From a virus (lineage: Duplodnaviria > Heunggongvirae > Uroviricota > Caudoviricetes): 8,473 nt of DNA. The stretch lies in IMG/VR virus record IMGVR_UViG_2579778666_000005. One strand, written 5' to 3'. The notes under the pieces are model-generated. The model was not told the origin of the DNA, did no database searches, and saw nothing but the letters and a program-made list of their open reading frames with translations. Below are positions 2 to 8,473 of this stretch, piece by piece. Each line of letters begins with the position of its first letter. Position 1 is the stretch's first letter. Position numbers and translations under genes: made by a program.

Positions 2-19
2 TAATGCCAGTCAGTTAAG
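2..19. repeat. IS4 terminal inverted repeat (end distal to the transposase start)
   Basis: taatgccagtcagttaag; matches the reverse complement of 1410..1427 (taatgccgatcagttaag) at 16 of 18 positions. Confidence 0.85.
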
Positions 20-1343
20 CAACTGACTGGCTCTTTTTCGGGGCTGTGGGGTATTTCCAGGGCCTCTCCTTTACCACTCTCGGGAAGGCCCTTTCCCTTC
101 TTGTCGGTAATTTCACAAGTTGTCCCATACTTGCAAGATCGCGCATCAGCTCCGGTATACGTCCCGGTGAAGCGCCCTGCAATGTCATCAGCATTCTCAT
201 CACCATTCCGCATGATTCTGAGAAACTCAGTTGATTCGGCCAGTAACCTTTCAGATGTTCCGCCATTTTAATCATCTGATATCTCACCAGATTATAAGCC
301 AGTAAGACACCCCACAGCTCTTGCTCCACAAGCTCCGGCTTTTTACTTCTCAGCGTCAGCCTGCTCCGTTGCATCGTCTGTTTTATCTCCCTGTATCCCA
401 GTTCGATTTCCCAGCGATGACTGTACAGATCCCCCATTTCTCCTCCGGGGAAGCGCATGGCGTCCGTCATCGACGTCAGCAGATGGCAGACTTTTCCTTT
501 GCGCGTCACGGTCAGCAGGCGGGCAGTCACTTCATTTCCCAGTCCCGGCCACTTTTTTCGTGCCTGCGGGCTGGTTTTCAGCTTCACCAGATGATCGCCT
601 TTACCCAGTTTTCTGATCTCTTCATATTGCGCTCCCTTTCTGAGAGGTATCATCCAGTGGCGGTGTTCTCCCGCCAGGCTCCAGGCATTTAACAGTCCCA
701 GTGAGTAATAACCTTTGTCCATTAACGTCAGAGTGTTATCGCCGGTTTGTTCTATAAGTTGCTCAGCAAGCTCATTTTCGCTGTTCTTCATCGTGCCGAA
801 GGCTGCAGCCGTCAGCAGATGGCTGGTCAGTTCCATCTGGCAGACCATTTTGACCTGCGGGTAGAGCGCCGGGTTCCCGGCATGTGTCTGGCGGGGGAAG
901 GCTGCATCGTTCTCTGGTGTATCCGGTGTGCGCCAGAACACACCATCGATGGCCAGCAGGGTCAGGCCGCACCAGTGCGGATGCGGCGTGGCGTTATGCC
1001 AGAGCTGCGCTGTTTTCGTGAACACGCGGCGGACAGCCTCACTTCCCAGGCGCTGGCGGGCCTGAATAACGGCACTGGGGGCAACGAAGGGGCGATTGCC
1101 CGGCAGCATGATGTCCAGGCGATTCACAATCTGGTGAAGAGGTTCTTTACGCTCAAGCGCCATGCCAACAATACACCAGACCATCATTTCGAGGGGAAGA
1201 CGGCGCTTGCGTAGCGTTACAGTACCTGATTCGGCAAGGCAACGAGAGATGAGTTCGGGGTCGAGGTAATCCCCCAGAGAAGTCAGTGGGTTACGCAGAG
1301 AATCGTAACGGGATACCAGATCAAGAGCCTGTCCAATGTGCAT
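15..1343 (-). CDS. insG: IS4 transposase (DDE family), 442 aa
   Basis: The track ORF 15..1361 begins at a TTG. The first ATG is 6 codons in (1341..1343) and gives [40 protein letters not shown]..., which is the IS4 InsG N-terminus as I recall it. Resulting length is 442 aa. Confidence 0.92.
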
Positions 1344-1409
1344 AAAAAAATCCGGAAACAAGTGAGCGTTTCCGGATTCTTACACAGCCACTGGATCGGT
1401 CAACTGATC

Positions 1410-1427
1410 CTTAACTGATCGGCATTA
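1410..1427. repeat. IS4 terminal inverted repeat (end proximal to the transposase start)
   Basis: Reverse complement taatgccgatcagttaag pairs with 2..19 (16/18). Confidence 0.85.
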
Positions 1428-1461
1428 CCTTCAAAGAGGCGGTTTATGTTATCCCATTGGA

Positions 1462-3105
1462 TTAAGATCTACATTCAACTAAAAGGTACACTAATGGACG
1501 TTCTGGCGTCCCATTCTTCTTTGCAACAAAAGCAGATATTTTGTGTTTTGCTATTTTTTGCTTGAGTTTTTTACATAACACTTTGTTTATATAACCAAGT
1601 TTCCCGCTCTCATGAACAACAGCTATAGCATGTGGATCAACCGGGTTATCCTCTTCAGGAACAAGCTTGACCAAATCACCGACCATTACTTTCGACAAAT
1701 CAAGCCCTTCCTGATAACGAGTTCCTGCCACTTCAAAAAGAAGCTCACCTTCACTATTAAGAATTTCTGGATCTGGCACCAAACAAAAACCATCGCCAGG
1801 TGATTTTGCTCCTGTATATCCTAACAGCGCAAAATCAGAGCCTTCAAATGGATGGGGGAGCAAATGTTGAGCCAGATACTCAGCAAAGTCTTTTCTTTTC
1901 CGTGGTGGTAAACGCCGAACAAACGGGTCAAGCACGTTGTTCGTATGTTCTTCACTTTTCAGACTAAATGCGGGATGTCCTGCAAACCCTTTCTCTTGGG
2001 CTTTAGCATAATCTTCTGACTGAAAATGGTATGTGAAGACGTAGTTATCCCCTTGCTGACGATCAATCTGACCAACAACATAACGAGTACCGCCTGTGGG
2101 TGGCTGCCATGTAAGAAGCAACCGAGTAGGCTCCATTATTCTGTTTATAGTACGCATATTTAGAATCAGTGATAACCTTAGGTATCTACGCCTCAATAAA
2201 CGAATCGTCCAATCCGCTCGTTCCCTAGTGAACGGCACATCGGAGCTAATTTCGCAAAGTGAATCTATCTTGTCGACCAGTTCCTGAAAATCAAATTCAA
2301 GTCTCCGGGCCAAGTACGCTTTTGACTGCTCATCAAGAGCCAAATCCTGTATAGAAGAAATATGACCTAATCGTTCATGCGTGTCTGCCCGATTCTTCCG
2401 CAAATGATGACAACCACGCTGTATGTATTCATCTACATTTTGATGGTTCCATCCTCTGATCCTCTCTACATACCTTTCATGCCCCAAACTAGTACCATTA
2501 TCGAAATATGGTGCGAGATATCCCTTCACTTTAGGTGGCGTTATGCCTGGTGCAGATTCAGGTACAAAAACAAAACCCCAATTCTCTTGGTGTCTATCAC
2601 TATTACCGATGAGCGCATCAAAAAGCAGCATATCGTAAAGCCATTGGATCCAGTCTGGAGAGATCAGGCCGCGGATACTAAAAGCCCTACAAATTAAGCG
2701 TAGATCAACAAGGTTATGGTGTCTTCCGGAAGAGTCATCAAAATCCGATATCAACACATGAAAAAAATCAGACGCATGAACAAATAACTGGCTACTTTGA
2801 TCGTAAAACCACTCAAGCAAAGCTCCATATTCGTATTCACCGTTCTCCATCATTCTTCGCGCTGGCAATGCTTTAGGAACAGGAACGCCCATAACATCTC
2901 CAACTATATAAGCAACGGTTTCCATCCAGTACTGATCGGGATAAGCATCTCTTGAGAGTTTAAAAAGATAAGGCCATTCCGGTTTTATCCCCTCAGGAGC
3001 ATCATTCGGTGACCAAAGCATTTTTTTATCCCTCGCTCCTCGAGGAAAAATGCCATGCTCATCATCTTTACGCCAACTAGTTACATCTATTAAATTGATA
3101 TCCAT
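1462..3105 (-). CDS. HipA-like (PI3/4-kinase-fold) protein kinase domain fused to a C-terminal HIRAN domain, 547 aa
   Basis: ATG start at 3103..3105, TAA stop at 1462..1464. Catalytic-loop-like motif LIGNSDRHQENWGF at about residues 164-177 (GNxDxHxxN, HipA_C-like) followed by APYFDNG at about 198-204 (HipA YD-like metal-binding motif). C-terminal NPVDPHAIAVVHESGKLGYINK at about 487-508 resembles the HIRAN signature (NPxDxNAI ... G..GY). Start lies 9 nt downstream of the preceding gene's stop, so probably co-translated. Visibly AT-rich. Confidence 0.8.
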   Translation of the reverse strand: MDINLIDVTSWRKDDEHGIFPRGARDKKMLWSPNDAPEGIKPEWPYLFKLSRDAYPDQYWMETVAYIVGDVMGVPVPKALPARRMMENGEYEYGALLEWFYDQSSQLFVHASDFFHVLISDFDDSSGRHHNLVDLRLICRAFSIRGLISPDWIQWLYDMLLFDALIGNSDRHQENWGFVFVPESAPGITPPKVKGYLAPYFDNGTSLGHERYVERIRGWNHQNVDEYIQRGCHHLRKNRADTHERLGHISSIQDLALDEQSKAYLARRLEFDFQELVDKIDSLCEISSDVPFTRERADWTIRLLRRRYLRLSLILNMRTINRIMEPTRLLLTWQPPTGGTRYVVGQIDRQQGDNYVFTYHFQSEDYAKAQEKGFAGHPAFSLKSEEHTNNVLDPFVRRLPPRKRKDFAEYLAQHLLPHPFEGSDFALLGYTGAKSPGDGFCLVPDPEILNSEGELLFEVAGTRYQEGLDLSKVMVGDLVKLVPEEDNPVDPHAIAVVHESGKLGYINKVLCKKLKQKIAKHKISAFVAKKNGTPERPLVYLLVECRS

Positions 3106-3114
3106 ATCTTACGG

Positions 3115-3666
3115 TTACCCAGCTAATGCACGGAAAGCAGCACTAACATAAGCTACCTGAAACTTTGCATCTCGAAGCGCATGATGCGCATCAGTAACAT
3201 TAATGGAAAAATTTGCCCTTACATCAATATTCTTAAGGCTTTTAGCTAGTTCAACGATGGTACGCACGTCTCGATCATTTCGAAAACGCCATGGGATATT
3301 TTGCGCATGTTTACGGTAAACCGCTGCCAATATAGCGTTATCAAAGCTTGCCCCATTCCCCCAAACTTGTACGTCATCGTTACTACGACTTCGTACAAAT
3401 AGAGAAAATTCTTGTAAGGCTTCATGTAAGTCAACAGCAGACGGGTCATTAAAAACCGCCCTTGCAGAATCGCTTTGTATCATCCACCACTGTAAAGTTT
3501 TTGGGTCTACAAAACTATTTTCCAATGCAGATGATAGGGTTATAACTCTATAAAACTCATCCCCACACTTGCCAGTCAGAGGCTCAAAGAACACAGCGCC
3601 GATTGAAATCAAAGGAGCATCCATTGACACACCTAATGTTTCTATATCGAGCATTAAATTATTCAT
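3115..3666 (-). CDS. DEDDh-family 3'-5' exonuclease (DnaQ/RNase T-like), 183 aa
   Basis: ATG at 3664..3666 preceded by a strong SD (ggaggttaa ATG). All three exo motifs are present: Exo I LDIETLG (D8, E10), Exo II GNGASFDNAIL (D109), Exo III HHALRDA (H161-x4-D166). Stop TAA at 3115..3117. Confidence 0.82.
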   Translation of the reverse strand: MNNLMLDIETLGVSMDAPLISIGAVFFEPLTGKCGDEFYRVITLSSALENSFVDPKTLQWWMIQSDSARAVFNDPSAVDLHEALQEFSLFVRSRSNDDVQVWGNGASFDNAILAAVYRKHAQNIPWRFRNDRDVRTIVELAKSLKNIDVRANFSINVTDAHHALRDAKFQVAYVSAAFRALAG

Positions 3667-3806
3667 TTAACCTCCACCCCAGACATAGCTCAGGGAAACG
3701 TAACCTATTGAAATAACGAATCAAGTATTTGTCACATTCTATACTAAAACATTCGAATTCCAAAACTTCAGCTTTTGCAACCCCTTACAAGTCAATTGAT
3801 CCATAA

Positions 3807-3826
3807 TACTGTATACATACACAGTA
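3807..3826. promoter_or_regulatory. LexA (SOS) box in the intergenic region between gene A and the exonuclease/kinase cassette
   Basis: tactgtatacatacacagta matches the E. coli LexA consensus TACTG(TA)5CAGTA at 18/20, with CTG and CAG separated by 10 nt. It lies about 140 nt upstream of the exonuclease ATG on the coding side. Flanking sigma70 hexamers are ambiguous: TTGACT at 3790..3795 and TAGAAT near 3737..3742 are both plausible pieces but not correctly spaced with each other. Confidence 0.7.
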
Positions 3827-3844
3827 CTACATTTGAAAAACAAA

Positions 3845-6121
3845 TCAAGGGAAATCATTAAAACCCGGCCAATCACAACAAGGCGGATAAACAAATTTTT
3901 TCATGTCATAAATAACTTCTGCCCCACGAGCCAGCGCCTCAAGCTCCCATCTCTGAGGCCTGATACCGTTCTGAGCAAGGTCAACGCGGATACGGGTGAT
4001 TTGCAATCGTTCAGACCGGGTCAGTCTGGCCGATGGTGCAATTTCATGCGGTTTTAACGGGCTTCCGTTTCTTTGCTGACGGTTTGGTCTTCTCAGGCCG
4101 TATTTTAATGCACCTCTGAGCGCCCTCACGACCTCCGGGTCATTCCATTCGATAACACCGTCATCAACCAGATTAAGCACTGCTGCGGCGTGCTCAGAAG
4201 GTTTGGGAGCCGTTAACGAAGTATCACTGCCGGTGAACTTTCCACAGTTATTGACAGGACTCCGAGGCGCGGCGATGCCGCTTTTTAAAGTCAAAGGCTC
4301 AACGACCGGAACTTTCGGCACAATGCGCCAGTCCGTCGTTCTGGTGATATGAATATGACGCGCGCCGAGATGCGGCGCGTAAATGCCGACCACTCTCTCG
4401 ACTTCTTCCTCGTACTCGTTAACGTCATCCGACGGGCTACGGGCGACTCTGACAGTCTGACAATCGCGCGGAACATTTGCCCCACCCTGCGCGCTGATAT
4501 ACAACGCAAAATCACCACTGTCTGCGGCAGCGCGAGCAGCCTCGACGCGTTCGTCAAACTCATCAGCAATACTGACGCCGCGAGGCAATTTGCGTAGTTC
4601 ACGGTAAGCCCCCATTGTCGGCAGTCCAACCGTTTTAAATTGCGGGATGCGCCACGTTGACGCCCATGCGGTAACAGCCGCGGCAGTATCTTTAAGCGGC
4701 TTACCGGTATCGTTATCGAGCTGACCATCCAGTGCATAGCCGTCGATATTTTTTGAAATGTATTTCGCGATATATCCCGCAGCACCGCCCCGGTTAAGGT
4801 GTTTTGCCTGAAAACGGTTTCGCGCGGCTCCTCTTTCGTCGCCATCCTCTTTGAGCGCATAGCGACGCATGATTTCAATAATCTGGTTACGCTGGCGTGG
4901 ATTACAAAAAAGCATCATATGCCAGTGCGGCGTTCCGTCGTGGTGTGGTTCAACAACACGCAAACCGTAGGCCTGTAAATCATTATCCTTGAATGCCGTG
5001 CGCATCAGGCTCCAGATACGGCAGAGATAACGCTGCGCATCCTTTGGATTAAATGCCTCATCATTCCAGCCGTGATTTAGCTGGACGGTTTTACTTTCGC
5101 CTTTTCTGACCTGACGTGTCGGGTGATACTTTGACGGCGCGGTCAGCGTGATAAACATCCCCACATCACCCTCTGCGGCAGCGTAACGCTCAATACCGGC
5201 GATGGTGTTCATCAGCTCCATCCGGCGAATTTCTGGATTAGAAATACTGCCCATCACCTTACTGATAAGGTCGATGCGCTCGCCGGTTTCCCTGTTTTCA
5301 AGGTCACACGATTTAAGAAATTCCAGATTTGCCTGGCGGCGCGCACGCACATCACGAATGGCATGTTTACTGGCATAAGGAGAACGGTCTTTATTGACCT
5401 CCCCGACAGCAATCAGTAACGCCTCATGCCAGCGCATACGCTGGCCTTTAAGCTGATGAGTCCACCATTCATCGTTAAACAGACGGGCAATGGCAGAATA
5501 TGCCTGCCTCGTGGTCATCTGCCCTTTACGGTATTTTTTCCAGTAGAGCGGAGAAATATTGAAAGCACGTGCAGCGCCAGCAACATGACCATAGAGGTGA
5601 GCCTGCGCCTCATCCGTAAACAGCGATTCTTTTTCGCCATGCGCATCCACCCAGGCATCGCAGAGTTCCTCATACATCATGAAAAGCTGCGATGAGATAC
5701 GGGCGGCAAACTTTTTCAGCTCCTTATCATTCATCCCCGGCAGACGCGCATAATGGTCACGCTCTGCCAGAAACAGCAACGACGCGTCGGTGTTCATTTC
5801 ATGGCGCTGATTCACACGCTCAATGCGCGGCCATAAACGACGCTGAAAAGTGGATGTGAGGAAATAAAACCCGTGCACCGGGCTTTTATTGCGCCGGATG
5901 TAGTCATAGCGTGAAGTAAACAGCGAGCGCAAAAAGTAAGGCAGGCGGTTAATCGTGGATAAAACACCTTGCACCTGACGCATCTCGTCACGTGTAAGGG
6001 GTCTTTCGCGCCCGACGGCCTCGCGTGGCGCGTTCCATGCATAAGCACCGGTAAACGTCTTACCGGTGCCTGCGGCAAATGCTGACGGAGGGACAAAACG
6101 CCCGGAGGCTTTAACGGCCAT
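3845..6121 (-). CDS. A: P2-type replication initiation endonuclease gpA (HUH rolling-circle Rep), about 758 aa
   Basis: HUH motif PHWHMMLF (codons for HWH at 4919..4927) and a double-tyrosine motif GYIAKYISK (Tyr codons at 4772..4774 and 4760..4762). N-terminus MAVKASGRFVPPSAF... from the ATG at 6119..6121 matches my recollection of P2 gpA. The track start at 6163 is a TTG that would overlap the upstream gene by more than 50 nt; I prefer the ATG. Confidence 0.88.
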   Translation of the reverse strand: MAVKASGRFVPPSAFAAGTGKTFTGAYAWNAPREAVGRERPLTRDEMRQVQGVLSTINRLPYFLRSLFTSRYDYIRRNKSPVHGFYFLTSTFQRRLWPRIERVNQRHEMNTDASLLFLAERDHYARLPGMNDKELKKFAARISSQLFMMYEELCDAWVDAHGEKESLFTDEAQAHLYGHVAGAARAFNISPLYWKKYRKGQMTTRQAYSAIARLFNDEWWTHQLKGQRMRWHEALLIAVGEVNKDRSPYASKHAIRDVRARRQANLEFLKSCDLENRETGERIDLISKVMGSISNPEIRRMELMNTIAGIERYAAAEGDVGMFITLTAPSKYHPTRQVRKGESKTVQLNHGWNDEAFNPKDAQRYLCRIWSLMRTAFKDNDLQAYGLRVVEPHHDGTPHWHMMLFCNPRQRNQIIEIMRRYALKEDGDERGAARNRFQAKHLNRGGAAGYIAKYISKNIDGYALDGQLDNDTGKPLKDTAAAVTAWASTWRIPQFKTVGLPTMGAYRELRKLPRGVSIADEFDERVEAARAAADSGDFALYISAQGGANVPRDCQTVRVARSPSDDVNEYEEEVERVVGIYAPHLGARHIHITRTTDWRIVPKVPVVEPLTLKSGIAAPRSPVNNCGKFTGSDTSLTAPKPSEHAAAVLNLVDDGVIEWNDPEVVRALRGALKYGLRRPNRQQRNGSPLKPHEIAPSARLTRSERLQITRIRVDLAQNGIRPQRWELEALARGAEVIYDMKKFVYPPCCDWPGFNDFP

Positions 6122-6386
6122 ATGAGCCAAAAGCCTCTGAACAACGCTTGCTGAGTTGCTCAACCTGCGCGTTTAAATCAGCAAAAGACTTTGCGCTTCC
6201 GGTCAGAATATCGTGATGCATCAGGCCGGAAACAAGCTGGCTTAATTTCGGGTAATAACCAACCACCGCCAGCCATTCCTGACCGGCGTTTTTACCGCTT
6301 TCCGCTCTCTTTTTCTCGTGGAGAATAAACTGGAAGCTGTCACTGGTAACGACATAACGTTCGCCAATTTCAATACGAATACTCAT
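6111..6386 (-). CDS. Small conserved early-operon protein, 91 aa; by position the P2 orf83 equivalent
   Basis: ATG start with a GGAG SD 7 nt upstream; ATGA start/stop overlap with the upstream ORF; its 3' end overlaps the gene A start. Function unknown. Confidence 0.7.
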   Translation of the reverse strand: MSIRIEIGERYVVTSDSFQFILHEKKRAESGKNAGQEWLAVVGYYPKLSQLVSGLMHHDILTGSAKSFADLNAQVEQLSKRCSEAFGSYGR

Positions 6387-6607
6387 GCCGTTCTCCGGTA
6401 ATGTTTGTTTTTTGCTTCAAAGACTGACTGACAGGAAACACAACGCGTGGCTGACGGATAAGCCGCACGACGGGCAGCAGGTATTGGCGCGTCACACTCT
6501 TCGCAAACCAGCGCAGAAGCACCGCAATGTTTACCCCTTGCCGCGTTAATCTGGCGCTCCAGTAATTCAGCCTGTTGTTCCTGAATAAAATCTACGTTGT
6601 CCGGCAT
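6383..6607 (-). CDS. TraR/DksA-family C4 zinc-finger protein, 74 aa; by position the P2 orf82 equivalent
   Basis: CxxC-x17-CxxC (CEECDAPIPAARRAAYPSATRCVSC) in a short protein with an acidic N-terminal helix; strong SD (aaggag) 7 nt upstream of the ATG. Confidence 0.75.
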   Translation of the reverse strand: MPDNVDFIQEQQAELLERQINAARGKHCGASALVCEECDAPIPAARRAAYPSATRCVSCQSVFEAKNKHYRRTA

Positions 6608-6609
6608 TA

Positions 6610-6909
6610 TCAGCTCCTTTTATCGTTAAGTTTCCTGGATACATCAGCGCAATAACTGGCGAGTTCTGTCGTTAATTTTGTCAGTTCATCCACTGAGGAA
6701 ATTTGCTTGTGGAATACAGCGCGTTTAACAAGTAAATTGACCACATCAGACAGGAGGTTTAATTCATTCTGATAAATCGCGATAACAGATTCAGTGATGT
6801 CGCGTTTTTCTTTATCAAGACAAAGTTGAATAAGAGACAAATCGCCATTTTCCATAACGGCGATTTTTAAGGCGTTATTCAGTAATACAACTGAATGAGA
6901 ACAGGACAT
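6610..6909 (-). CDS. Hypothetical early-operon protein, 99 aa; by position the P2 orf81 equivalent
   Basis: The track start at 6912 is TTG. The adjacent ATG at 6907..6909 has a GGAGG SD about 9 nt upstream and overlaps the upstream stop (TGATG). Confidence 0.65.
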   Translation of the reverse strand: MSCSHSVVLLNNALKIAVMENGDLSLIQLCLDKEKRDITESVIAIYQNELNLLSDVVNLLVKRAVFHKQISSVDELTKLTTELASYCADVSRKLNDKRS

Positions 6910-7133
6910 CAAAGTACCTCCCCACGAGACAATCCGATATTGTGAAATTTTTCCGACTCCTGACTGAGCAGCTCGACTATCTCCACGCGGGATAACTCCG
7001 CCTTTGTGATGTGGCGAATCATGGCGTCAAGATGAGAAGAAAAGCGCGTCGCAGCGTCAGCCTGTGCTTCGGTTCTGGCCTGTTGCAGCAGTAATGCGTA
7101 TTTACCGCACTGATTTTCAGAAACTGTATGCAT
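6909..7133 (-). CDS. Hypothetical early-operon protein, 74 aa; by position the P2 orf80 equivalent
   Basis: ATG at 7131..7133 with a GGAG SD 8 nt upstream; same strand and operon context. Confidence 0.65.
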
Positions 7134-7196
7134 AATTTTCTCCAGGCAAAAAGAAGCCCCGCACGATTAAGTGCGTTTAAAACTCTGGTTAATTAT

Positions 7197-7697
7197 TTAA
7201 TGCAGATATTGCTCTGGTTTTACCGACGTCAGAATTGTCGGTGCATACTCAAACAGGCTGAATAATTCACGTAATGCACGGAATAAAGCATCACGCCAGT
7301 AACATGACTCTTCATTAATTCGCCAGTATGGCTGGTTGAATTCTTTTTCAGTCAATCCGGCATGCATAAATAAAGTACGACGCTGACTGACTGTTAAAAA
7401 ACTAATATATGCATACTCACTTGCGCCAACCTGACGGCGTTTTGAGAATGCCCCACGCAATTCATCAATTGCACAAACCAGCCGTTCACGTTCGACGTCG
7501 TTCATTTCTTCAAAACGCATCGTTGCATGACGTTGTTTTAACTGCGCATGAAAGCAAACCGTTAGCCGTTCGCGTTCCATCATCTGATTATAATAATCAC
7601 ATGTATCCTGCCAGCGAGGGACGGCCAGATGCTTACCAATTATCCGGCGCATAGCTGCTGGCTGTTTTTCAACGAGATTAAGCGTCATCACTGTCAT
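7197..7697 (-). CDS. B: P2 gpB-like replication protein (helicase-loader role in P2), 166 aa
   Basis: Length 166 aa and N-terminus MTVMTLNLVEKQPAAMRRIIGKHLAVPRWQD... match my recollection of P2 gpB. GGAGGG SD 9 nt upstream; ATGA overlap with the upstream ORF. Confidence 0.8.
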   Translation of the reverse strand: MTVMTLNLVEKQPAAMRRIIGKHLAVPRWQDTCDYYNQMMERERLTVCFHAQLKQRHATMRFEEMNDVERERLVCAIDELRGAFSKRRQVGASEYAYISFLTVSQRRTLFMHAGLTEKEFNQPYWRINEESCYWRDALFRALRELFSLFEYAPTILTSVKPEQYLH

Positions 7698-7864
7698 TTC
7701 CAGACCCTCCGGCTTTTCAGAAAGGTCAGAGCCTTCTTTAACGGACTCTGTTTTTTGGTGCGGATAATGATTCCCTTGCGTCCCTTCCCGTGGGTGATGG
7801 TGAAGTCAATCGCCCTGGGGCTTTCGTTACGCAGTAACTGAGCAATACAACGCGGTTCACTCAT
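7694..7864 (-). CDS. Small basic protein, 56 aa from the ATG at 7864 (65 aa if 7891 is used); by position possibly the P2 orf78 equivalent
   Basis: Lys/Arg-rich C-terminus. The ATG at 7862..7864 overlaps the stop of the truncated upstream ORF (ATGAGTGA), typical of translational coupling. The ATG at 7891 has no SD and an in-frame stop just upstream. Confidence 0.5.
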   Translation of the reverse strand: MSEPRCIAQLLRNESPRAIDFTITHGKGRKGIIIRTKKQSPLKKALTFLKSRRVWK

Positions 7865-8033
7865 AATCACAACCCCATCCACAAAAGCCATGCATCACGC
7901 TGTTCAACTGGTCGGTTATAAAACGCCTCTCGTACAGCGCGATTAAACTCTGGAATGAAAACCCACTTCTCACCGACACGGGCGTTCGGCTTACTTGGAT
8001 CACGAAGCTCAATAACTGGCAATTTATTCTCTT
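7857..8033 (-). pseudogene. 3' fragment (58 codons plus stop) of an early-operon gene truncated by the IS629-like insertion; possibly a cox-like first gene
   Basis: One minus-strand frame is open from the IS junction (8033) to a TGA at 7857..7859, giving KRINCQLLSFVIQVSRTPVSVRSGFSFQSLIALYERRFITDQLNSVMHGFCGWGCDYE*. It has no start codon in the prophage-derived sequence. The sequence does not match my recollection of P2 Cox, so identity is uncertain. Confidence 0.4.
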
Positions 8034-8087
8034 TGAACCGCCCCGGGAATCCTGGAGACTAAACTTCCTGAGAAAGAGGTAAACAGG

Positions 8088-8414
8088 ATGACTAAAAATA
8101 CTCGTTTTTCCCCCGAAGTCCGTCAGAGGGCGATTCGTATGGTTCTGGAAAGTCAGGGCGAATATGACTCACAGTGGGCGGCAATTTGTTCCATTGCCCC
8201 AAAGATTGGCTGTACACCGGAGACTCTGCGTGTCTGGGTACGCCAGCATGAGCGGGATACCGGAGGCGGTGATGGCGGGCTCACCACCGCTGAACGTCAG
8301 CGTCTGAAAGAGCTGGAACGTGAAAATCGTGAACTGCGCCGCAGTAACGATATCCTTCGCCAGGCTTCCGCTTATTTTGCGAAGGCGGAGTTCGACCGCC
8401 TCTGGAAAAAATGA
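8088..8414 (+). CDS. IS3-family transposase OrfA (HTH and leucine-zipper part), 108 aa, IS629-like
   Basis: [85 protein letters not shown]... matches IS629 OrfA as I recall it to within a few residues. ATG with an upstream GAGG/AGG. Confidence 0.9.
8406..8411 (+). other. Putative programmed -1 ribosomal frameshift slippery run (A6) at the orfA/orfB junction
   Basis: gg aaa aaa tga: the A6 run at 8406..8411 sits immediately before the orfA stop with orfB open in the -1 frame. This is the arrangement IS3-family elements use to make the OrfAB fusion transposase. Confidence 0.5.
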
Positions 8415-8473
8415 TGCCACTGCTGGATAAGCTGCGTGAGCAGTACGGGGTCGGACCGCTATGCAGCGAACTG
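8411..8473 (+). CDS. IS3-family transposase OrfB, 5' end only (truncated by the window), in the -1 frame relative to OrfA
   Basis: [21 protein letters not shown] begins at the ATGATG at 8411, overlapping the orfA stop; classic orfA/orfB arrangement. Confidence 0.8.

Follow-up and report, generated by a model that had tools for sequence, protein, structure and literature searches.

A DexA-family exonuclease gene co-inherited with HipL-type kinase genes in the cargo of P2-like prophages

The bacteriophage-derived stretch of 8,473 nucleotides considered here (IMG/VR record IMGVR_UViG_2579778666_000005; Caudoviricetes), which we call the window, carries a short gene, exo (3115..3666, minus strand, ATG start), directly upstream of a gene for a HipA-family kinase, hipL. 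The product of exo is a predicted DEDDh 3'-5' exonuclease of 183 amino acids and a new member of a known family, that of phage T4 DexA and mycobacterial Rv2179c. [quoted passage not shown] No description of a conserved exo-hipL or exo-hipI-hipN module in Proteobacteria was found in the literature searched, and the exonuclease is absent from the definition of PDC-M03, the candidate system of the PADLOC collection to which such kinases correspond. An earlier note on this DNA, made from its letters, had recognised the exonuclease; it had missed that exonucleases of this family are otherwise common in phages, with DexA and the E. coli protein EcD among its relatives, and that the cassette occupies the gpA-portal hotspot of P2-like phages.

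A predicted exonuclease of the DexA/Rv2179c family

The exo protein, identical to RefSeq WP_001774096.1 of the same cassette in E. coli, matches Pfam PF16473 (Rv2179c-like 3'-5' exoribonuclease) from profile position 1 to 176 of 177 with an E value of 6.8e-57 (192.4 bits against a gathering cutoff of 27), and the PHROG family phrog_255, annotated as 'exonuclease', with an E value of 1e-62; both matches are far beyond chance. The exonuclease motifs follow in the canonical order, namely D7-I-E9 (ExoI), D109 within GASFDNAIL (ExoII) and H161-x4-D166 within AHHALRDA (ExoIII), the five catalytic codons lying on the minus strand at 3648-3646 (D7), 3642-3640 (E9), 3342-3340 (D109), 3186-3184 (H161) and 3171-3169 (D166). 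All five residues are invariant both in an alignment of 35 homologues (46-87% identity) and in 13 kinase-linked orthologues, and the larger alignment also preserves W60-W61, W102-G-N-G105 and D131-R-D-V-R-T136 without exception. H161 is the likely general base, because the adjacent H162 varies among the 13 linked orthologues. The compact DEDDh exonuclease of the earlier note is therefore borne out by motifs, family matches and fold, as are the order and spacing of its motifs, D109 and H161-x4-D166; the acidic pair of the first motif, read there as D8-x-E10, was off by one and is D7/E9. Homology searches did not place the protein in a non-catalytic family lacking the DEDDh residues, the outcome that the note had named as one that would refute its proposal.

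The AlphaFold2 model of exo, which is of high confidence (predicted local distance difference test, pLDDT, 92.7; predicted template modelling score, pTM, 0.89), has an RNase H-like alpha/beta fold. Its best Foldseek matches in the PDB are T4 DexA (8KEN/8KEL; E 1.7e-10, template modelling score 0.79), then RNase T, then REXO2 and Orn, all at a probability of 1.00, and a sequence profile of exo finds DexA among PDB entries with an E value of 1.6e-16 and nothing else that is convincing. Taken together, the invariant motifs, the Pfam and PHROG matches, the confident model and the DexA fold lead to the view that exo is a single-domain DEDDh 3'-5' exonuclease of the phage DexA/Rv2179c family, predicted to be catalytically intact. 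No solved structure is closer to exo than that of DexA, which is also the one clear sequence match in the PDB. DexA shares with exo the DEDDh residues, the WW motif and an N-x-RD-x-RT motif, but the two are only about 20% identical, DexA is longer (227 amino acids, with extra loops and helices) and their alignment around DexA D169 is ambiguous. The N-D-R-D-V-R-T motif was considered as a marker of short substrates and abandoned, since it also occurs in DexA, an enzyme that digests long DNA. RNase T and Orn/REXO2, the next-best folds, are likewise DEDDh enzymes of about 180-200 amino acids acting on 3' ends or short oligonucleotides, but they are housekeeping enzymes with about 20% identity to exo; for exo no sign of a phosphate cap that would limit it to dinucleotides emerged. 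Concerning the Rv2179c-like family, named after the M. tuberculosis protein, the match is full-length, but the name implies RNA substrates whereas the nearest characterised relatives of exo, DexA and EcD, are DNases; Rv2179c itself is absent from the PDB matches. No PADLOC model claims exo, the matches there being to a CRISPR-associated DEDDh model (weak, E 9e-7) and, weaker still, to an 'Effector' exonuclease model (E 0.0056), and a scan with NCBIfam gave nothing useful.

Linkage of the exonuclease to one kinase lineage

The association was surveyed from both sides. From the side of the kinase, one genome per species was scanned with a kinase alignment as query and the best 80 HipL or HipI-HipN loci were retained; from the side of the exonuclease, the best 80 metagenomic relatives were taken, and both sets are biased toward close relatives. 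The exonuclease gene occurs in 4 of the 80 kinase loci of other species, these being the four closest (at least 56% identity), and always immediately upstream on the same strand. In the other 76 no exonuclease was detected within 5 kb by the hidden Markov model (HMM) of the family, about 68 of them having at least 700 nt of upstream sequence. Among the metagenomic relatives of exo, a kinase follows in all three of those that have at least 57% identity and downstream sequence, and in none of the 76 at or below 51% identity is there a kinase nearby. Within the clade of the window exonuclease a HipL or HipI-HipN kinase lies directly downstream in 16 of 16 loci examined, including three members picked with their context unknown beforehand, all of which proved to be kinase-linked. 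The gap between the two genes, measured in 13 pairs, ranges from -11 to +27 nt, while identity to the window proteins in these pairs ranges from 46 to 90% for the exonuclease and from 50 to 89% for the kinase core. A further 10 linked pairs are identified by agreement between two hit tables only.

The settings of the linked loci are varied. Nine of the 13 loci checked are gpA-portal hotspots of P2-like phages, with a gpA only 32-96% identical, and three further loci fall outside this check; both fused and split kinases are represented, and four loci have neither gpA nor portal gene nearby. One pair represents a further allele from E. coli, located in the same hotspot, and pairs in 186-like prophages have extra genes before or after them. 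Elsewhere, a split hipI-hipN kinase (PDC-M03A plus PDC-M03B according to PADLOC) accompanies a P4-type primase/DUF927 element, one locus is flanked by DUF3300 and transposase genes, another lies on a Proteus chromosome beside ahpCF together with an Ogr/Delta remnant, and yet another adjoins a Fic gene.

The trees are simple neighbour-joining (NJ) trees without support values. In the exonuclease tree the linked proteins form two neighbouring clades, one partnered by fused and the other by split kinases, and no unlinked protein is verified within them. In the kinase tree all linked kinases fall in one clade, where only two members, L008 and L010, lack the exonuclease; tblastn searches for decayed remnants of exo upstream of these two kinase genes found none. 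At L010, a Rheinheimera metagenome-assembled genome (MAG), the place of exo is taken by a gene for a DUF3037 protein (4571-5005, plus strand) which precedes, and overlaps by 17 nt, the linked-clade kinase gene. DUF3037 is also found in the proposed antitoxin-like partner of a kinase of a validated defence system, HipAD (DS-6), which suggests that the upstream partner slot of the kinase is swappable and may hold either exo or DUF3037.

The possibility that another nuclease stands in for exo upstream of exo-less hipIN genes was rejected, since Pfam identifies there mostly HsdS subunits of type I restriction-modification (R-M) systems, integrases and unrelated genes. In 10 of 29 loci checked (L024, L026, L027, L028, L033, L059, L073, L080 and others) the exo-less hipI-hipN genes directly follow such an hsdS gene, an hsdS-adjacent site being a known kind of nesting site for defence genes. 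In a P2/186-like prophage of Aeromonas salmonicida (L201, 4292-7918) a fused HipL with 41% identity lies between a cI-like repressor gene and the integrase gene, again with no exonuclease; it forms a separate lineage in the kinase tree, and hence the fusion of kinase, HipS and HIRAN probably arose there independently. At the HipA/HIRAN pair of the C. difficile phage phiCDKH02, the unannotated upstream gap of 620 nt holds no open reading frame (ORF) for an exonuclease. Because 76 of the 80 HipL/HipIN loci do without it, exo is not a core component of this kinase family, and we conclude from these comparisons that it is a lineage-specific accessory, stably co-inherited with one HipL/HipIN lineage.

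The kinase partner

The hipL gene of the window (1462..3105, minus strand; WP_023253881.1) encodes 547 amino acids, in which the PADLOC models PDC-M03A (E 4e-31) and PDC-M03B (E 1e-30) match one and the same protein, as if fused. The HipA_C-like kinase core (residues 1 to about 315; 2161..3105, minus strand) contains the invariant motifs GNSDRHQENWG and FDNG, its Pfam HipA_C score of 25.8 bits remaining under the gathering cutoff of 30.5. It is followed by a HipS-like domain (Couple_hipA, residues about 326-437; 1795..2130, minus strand), identified by Pfam, by PADLOC and by the published architecture, and by a HIRAN domain (residues about 453-545; 1471..1749, minus strand), identified by Pfam and by its fold. 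The structural model (pLDDT 88, pTM 0.89) matches CtkA, HipA and the HIRAN domain of HLTF bound to DNA. HipA-family kinases stop growth by phosphorylating aminoacyl-tRNA synthetases, and HipS-type domains neutralise the kinase.

In its arrangement of kinase core, HipS-like domain and HIRAN domain the window protein corresponds exactly to HipL of the HipL and HipI-HipN families (Gerdes et al. 2021, PMC8262856), which are equivalent to the PADLOC candidate PDC-M03; it differs from them in its genetic setting, since hipL was described as monocistronic and PDC-M03 consists of A and B only, so that an upstream exonuclease figures in neither definition. HIRAN domains bind DNA 3' ends (PMC8262856). 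In PADLOC, PDC-M03 has the rank of a candidate defence system only, and no experiments on HipL or on a proteobacterial exo-HipL pair turned up in the literature search. As regards variation of the kinase gene itself, one E. coli genome (L166, 6565-9556) has hipL split by an insertion sequence (IS) with an rve transposase next to an intact exonuclease gene, and at another locus (L164) the hipL product, as called, is shorter at its N terminus, with 518 amino acids.

Organisation of the two-gene unit

Sequence signals indicate that exo is the promoter-proximal and better translated gene of a predicted two-gene exo-hipL unit. A Shine-Dalgarno (SD) sequence, GGAGG (3671..3675, minus strand), stands 4 nt before the exo ATG, with a computed anti-SD duplex energy of -10.0 kcal/mol as against -3.7 kcal/mol for the weak SD of the kinase gene, in agreement with the earlier claim that the strongest ribosome binding site of the cassette belongs to exo; the exo SD is the stronger one in 12 of 13 orthologous pairs, the means being -8.7 and -4.1 kcal/mol. 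The exo stop codon is separated from the kinase ATG by 9 nt (3106..3114, minus strand), which show no promoter match. The sole sigma-70-like match between gpA and the cassette, by consensus only, is TTGGAA and TAGAAT with a 16-nt spacer (3736..3763, minus strand). It falls in a cassette-specific leader (3667..3858, minus strand), upstream of which, at about 3859-3935 within the 3' end of gpA, the similarity to P2-like prophages with other cargo ends; that exo is the first gene of the cassette, as the earlier note had it, agrees with both of these observations. The leader also has an AT-rich inverted repeat, TAATACTGTATA / TACACAGTACTA (3804-3829), whose arms are 2 nt apart. The repeat follows closely on the gpA stop codon, lies upstream of the promoter-like site and could serve as an operator or as a weak terminator. 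No match to a minus-strand terminator was obtained in the scanned region 1300-4000, and Rfam recognises no RNA element in the cassette, its only match being an ALIL pseudoknot of an IS3 element at the window edge. A classical hipBA type II toxin-antitoxin system would have a helix-turn-helix (HTH) antitoxin, HipB, encoded upstream of the kinase, and this assignment was rejected: the 178-nt leader holds no HTH ORF, and the gene upstream of the kinase is exo.

The prophage setting

The window represents the early or replication arm of a P2-like prophage, read from the minus strand, with RepB-like, DUF2732, DUF5405 and TraR/DksA-like genes and gpA, the P2 replication endonuclease gene (3845..6163, minus strand; PF05840, E 2e-122), which forms the upstream border of the hotspot. 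Positions 1428-8028 are 98.5% identical to an intact E. coli prophage, and E. coli prophages that are intact have this DNA between gpA and Q, the portal gene. As other P2-like prophages match only from within the 3' end of gpA, the cargo can be delimited as 3858..1428, and across this two-gene insert the GC content falls from about 52% to about 41%. The cassette is present in 61 of 5,426 complete E. coli genomes, at 100% identity in all matches listed. On this comparative evidence a P2-like prophage carries the exo-hipL pair as cargo in its gpA-portal hotspot. The site is the tin/old hotspot of P2 phages, which has been described as a hotspot of defence genes (Rousset et al. 2022, PMC9122126); that paper mentions neither HipA nor HIRAN, and has 'exonuclease' only in a reference title. 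With the old/tin cargo of P2 (PMC9122126) the pair shares the locus and the logic of prophage-borne exclusion, Old being also a nuclease, but the proteins are unrelated.

Both ends of the prophage segment in the window are bounded by IS elements, and the window copy is therefore probably a defective remnant. An IS4 element (15..1427, minus strand; transposase 15..1361) is inserted 34 nt past the hipL stop codon and replaces the cos/portal side of the hotspot, while at the right end an element of the IS3 family (region 8029-8473; orfA 8088..8414, ALIL frameshift pseudoknot 8369-8473) cuts within cox. In two 186-like prophages (L170, 7216-8880; L169, 7498-9056) other cargo accompanies the exo-hipL pair in the hotspot, in one of them a homologue of the PADLOC candidate PDC-S49, such that several systems are stacked in the hotspot.

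The wider exonuclease family and EcD

Outside the window clade the family is a common phage exonuclease, mostly with no link to a kinase: among phage records the exonuclease family occurs in 686 and HipL in 3. Some relatives are stand-alone proteins of about 190 amino acids encoded next to xis/int in lambdoid prophages, and others are single genes at prophage ends. In about 26 of the 80 metagenomic loci (L105, L115, L133, L140 and others) the homologue is the C-terminal domain of a long protein, of several hundred to about 850 and mostly about 820-850 amino acids; a Pfam scan of one of them (L115) shows an Exonuc_VIII (RecE-type) domain at the N terminus, as described for the proteins of about 823 amino acids. 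Their genes adjoin xis/int-like genes of lambdoid prophages, and the long homologues may combine two exonuclease modules in one protein. A 50%-identical homologue in a P2-like hotspot (L168, 216-1545) adjoins the portal gene and is followed not by a kinase gene but by a DUF4760 gene, whose product matches no PADLOC model.

Of the characterised relatives, T4 DexA is a 3'-5' DNase, and its E. coli homologue EcD ('HREX') has been reported to protect, alone, against T4 and to digest DNA containing 5-hydroxymethylcytosine (5hmC) (Kang et al. 2025, PMC12153337). The EcD sequence was approximated from the published primers, the printed reverse primer differing by one extra A; the protein so matched has 189 amino acids (196 from a longer ORF), is 36% identical to window exo and matches the exo profile with an E value of 1e-44. 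Its gene (L195, 5679-6269, minus strand; L198, 6401-6991, minus strand) sits in the early operon of P2-like prophages, beside a D12-class Dam methylase gene and upstream of gpA, from which EcD appears to be phage-borne rather than a host gene. Thus EcD/HREX (PMC12153337) and exo share membership of the DexA/Rv2179c family and carriage by P2-like prophages, but EcD belongs to another clade, lies in the early operon upstream of gpA rather than in the gpA-portal hotspot and has no kinase partner. By homology, that is, by its DexA profile match and its identity to the EcD-like protein, exo qualifies as a relative of HREX; an assignment to HREX-type exonucleases acting alone, with no obligate partner gene, was rejected for the window clade, given the kinase downstream at all 16 loci. 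EcD and window exo would then belong to a single phage-borne family whose members have at least three distinct genomic roles.

A Gram-positive parallel

A comparable arrangement is known from Actinomycetes and Clostridia, where, in a third of their Gram-positive loci, genes for diDNases of the NrnC type have HipA and HIRAN genes as neighbours; these enzymes cut only DNA dinucleotides (Mortensen et al. 2025, PMC11706625), a limitation owing to which they cannot be genome-degrading effectors. [quoted passage not shown] The enzymes differ, however, the diDNases forming another subfamily of DEDD enzymes, with an ExoII motif HHAxFD(L/I)xF and a C-terminal Tyr, and exo being of the DexA type, with GASFDNAIL and H161, and from other taxa. 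Accordingly, exo was rejected as a diDNase or NrnC protein on the grounds of its ExoII motif, its general base and the absence of any NrnC or diDNase structure among its PDB matches; and since exo fails this test of membership, the association of exonuclease and kinase looks convergent.

Possible roles of the exonuclease

The reading that we tentatively prefer, at somewhat less than an even chance, is that exo removes the free 3'-OH DNA ends or oligonucleotides sensed by the HIRAN domain and so acts as an antitoxin-like safety of HipL. In such a scheme the effector that arrests growth would be the HipL kinase, which its own HipS-like domain would restrain in cis and which would become active once HIRAN had bound free 3'-OH ends of DNA or short pieces of it. 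Exo would be a safety or threshold element, continuously clearing the 3' ends or oligonucleotides that arise from normal DNA metabolism, possibly including those of the prophage's own replication, and the kinase would fire only if infection made more ends than exo can clear, or if a phage factor blocked exo. A regulatory role is favoured because exo is dispensable in most HipIN systems, because it holds the upstream and better translated position typical of antitoxins, because the upstream slot appears interchangeable between exo and DUF3037, and because the diDNase-HipA-HIRAN clusters provide an independent parallel in Gram-positive bacteria. Where the earlier note had left the choice between an effector and a trimmer of the HIRAN ligand open, sequence alone still does not decide the question, but the comparative data lean towards a regulator. 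Several observations weigh against our preference: EcD, at about 36% identity, is reported to protect unaided against T4 through its degradation of 5hmC DNA, which favours an effector; most HipL/HipIN systems have no exonuclease, so that a ligand-clearing partner is not generally needed; the two kinases inside the linked clade, L008 and L010, do without it; and, with 9 of 13 checked loci in P2-type hotspots, part of the co-occurrence could be the inheritance of one cassette.

That exo is instead a direct effector, degrading phage or host DNA from free 3' ends as is reported for EcD, with HipL as a second, abortive layer or as a regulator of the nuclease, seems to us unlikely. The strict conservation of the catalytic residues, the protection reported for EcD alone (PMC12153337), the digestion of long DNA by DexA, its closest solved structure, and the classical presence of the Old exonuclease in the same P2 hotspot would all suit it. 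Yet window exo belongs to a different clade from the EcD-like sequence, the Gram-positive counterpart is confined to dinucleotides, and a stand-alone effector would have no need to remain beside one kinase lineage, at a distance of at most 27 nt, while the sequences diverged to about 50% identity. Still less probable is that exo is an independent neighbour, an ordinary phage gene of DNA metabolism, recombination or anti-defence that happens to share a hotspot with HipL. Such a status is favoured by how widespread the family is in phages that lack kinases (the 686 records against 3), the 76 metagenomic relatives at or below 51% identity with no kinase nearby, the relatives beside xis/int in lambdoid prophages or fused to Exonuc_VIII, the relative followed by DUF4760 in a P2-like hotspot and the place of the EcD-like gene in an early operon. 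For the window clade it has to contend with kinase linkage in 16 of 16 members, extending to the four loci with no gpA or portal and to fused and split kinases alike, with the lack of a promoter match between exo and hipL, and with the clustering of linked exonucleases and linked kinases each in their own tree.

Two further proposals make exo a functional partner of the kinase in other ways, and each has in our estimation only a slight chance of being right. Exo might be part of the sensor, processing incoming or replicating phage DNA and releasing a recessed end or short 3'-OH fragments for HIRAN. It is the first gene and predicted to be well translated, HIRAN domains bind DNA ends, and DEDDh enzymes such as RNase T, to go by the titles of structure entries, halt at defined structures and leave short products; but single-stranded 3' ends are what a 3'-5' exonuclease removes, not what it generates, the Gram-positive diDNases of the parallel clusters break down dinucleotides, and most HipL/HipIN systems sense without exo. 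Alternatively, exo could be a device of self-immunity, needed only on a replicating phage or satellite, where it would keep the replication intermediates of the element from triggering HipL at induction, an idea to which we attach a similarly low probability. The concentration of linked loci in gpA-portal hotspots of P2-like phages (9 of the 13 checked), with one more beside an Ogr/Delta remnant and another with a P4-type primase, fits well, as does the occurrence of exo-less hipIN mainly in chromosomal islands, for example after hsdS in the 10 of 29 loci. However, the Aeromonas P2/186-like prophage and the C. difficile phage carry HipL with no exonuclease, and the distribution may simply reflect descent.

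Implications

For this clade, the linked loci correct the description of hipL as monocistronic (PMC8262856). A lineage in which an exonuclease is always directly upstream provides a genetic handle on HipL/HipIN, or PDC-M03, and supports the hypothesis that DNA 3' ends or oligonucleotides are the signal to which these kinases respond. The parallel with the Gram-positive diDNase-HipA-HIRAN clusters speaks for a general rule, as opposed to a local coincidence. In its broadest form, which we consider doubtful, this rule would state that 3'-OH DNA ends or short fragments are an alarm signal for HIRAN-coupled HipA-family kinases and that DEDD exonucleases are dedicated clearers of that signal, recruited at least two times independently, as a DexA-type DEDDh enzyme in Proteobacteria and as an NrnC-type diDNase in Gram-positives. 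If this were true, such signal-clearing exonucleases would be analogous to ring nucleases or other immune enzymes that degrade second messengers.

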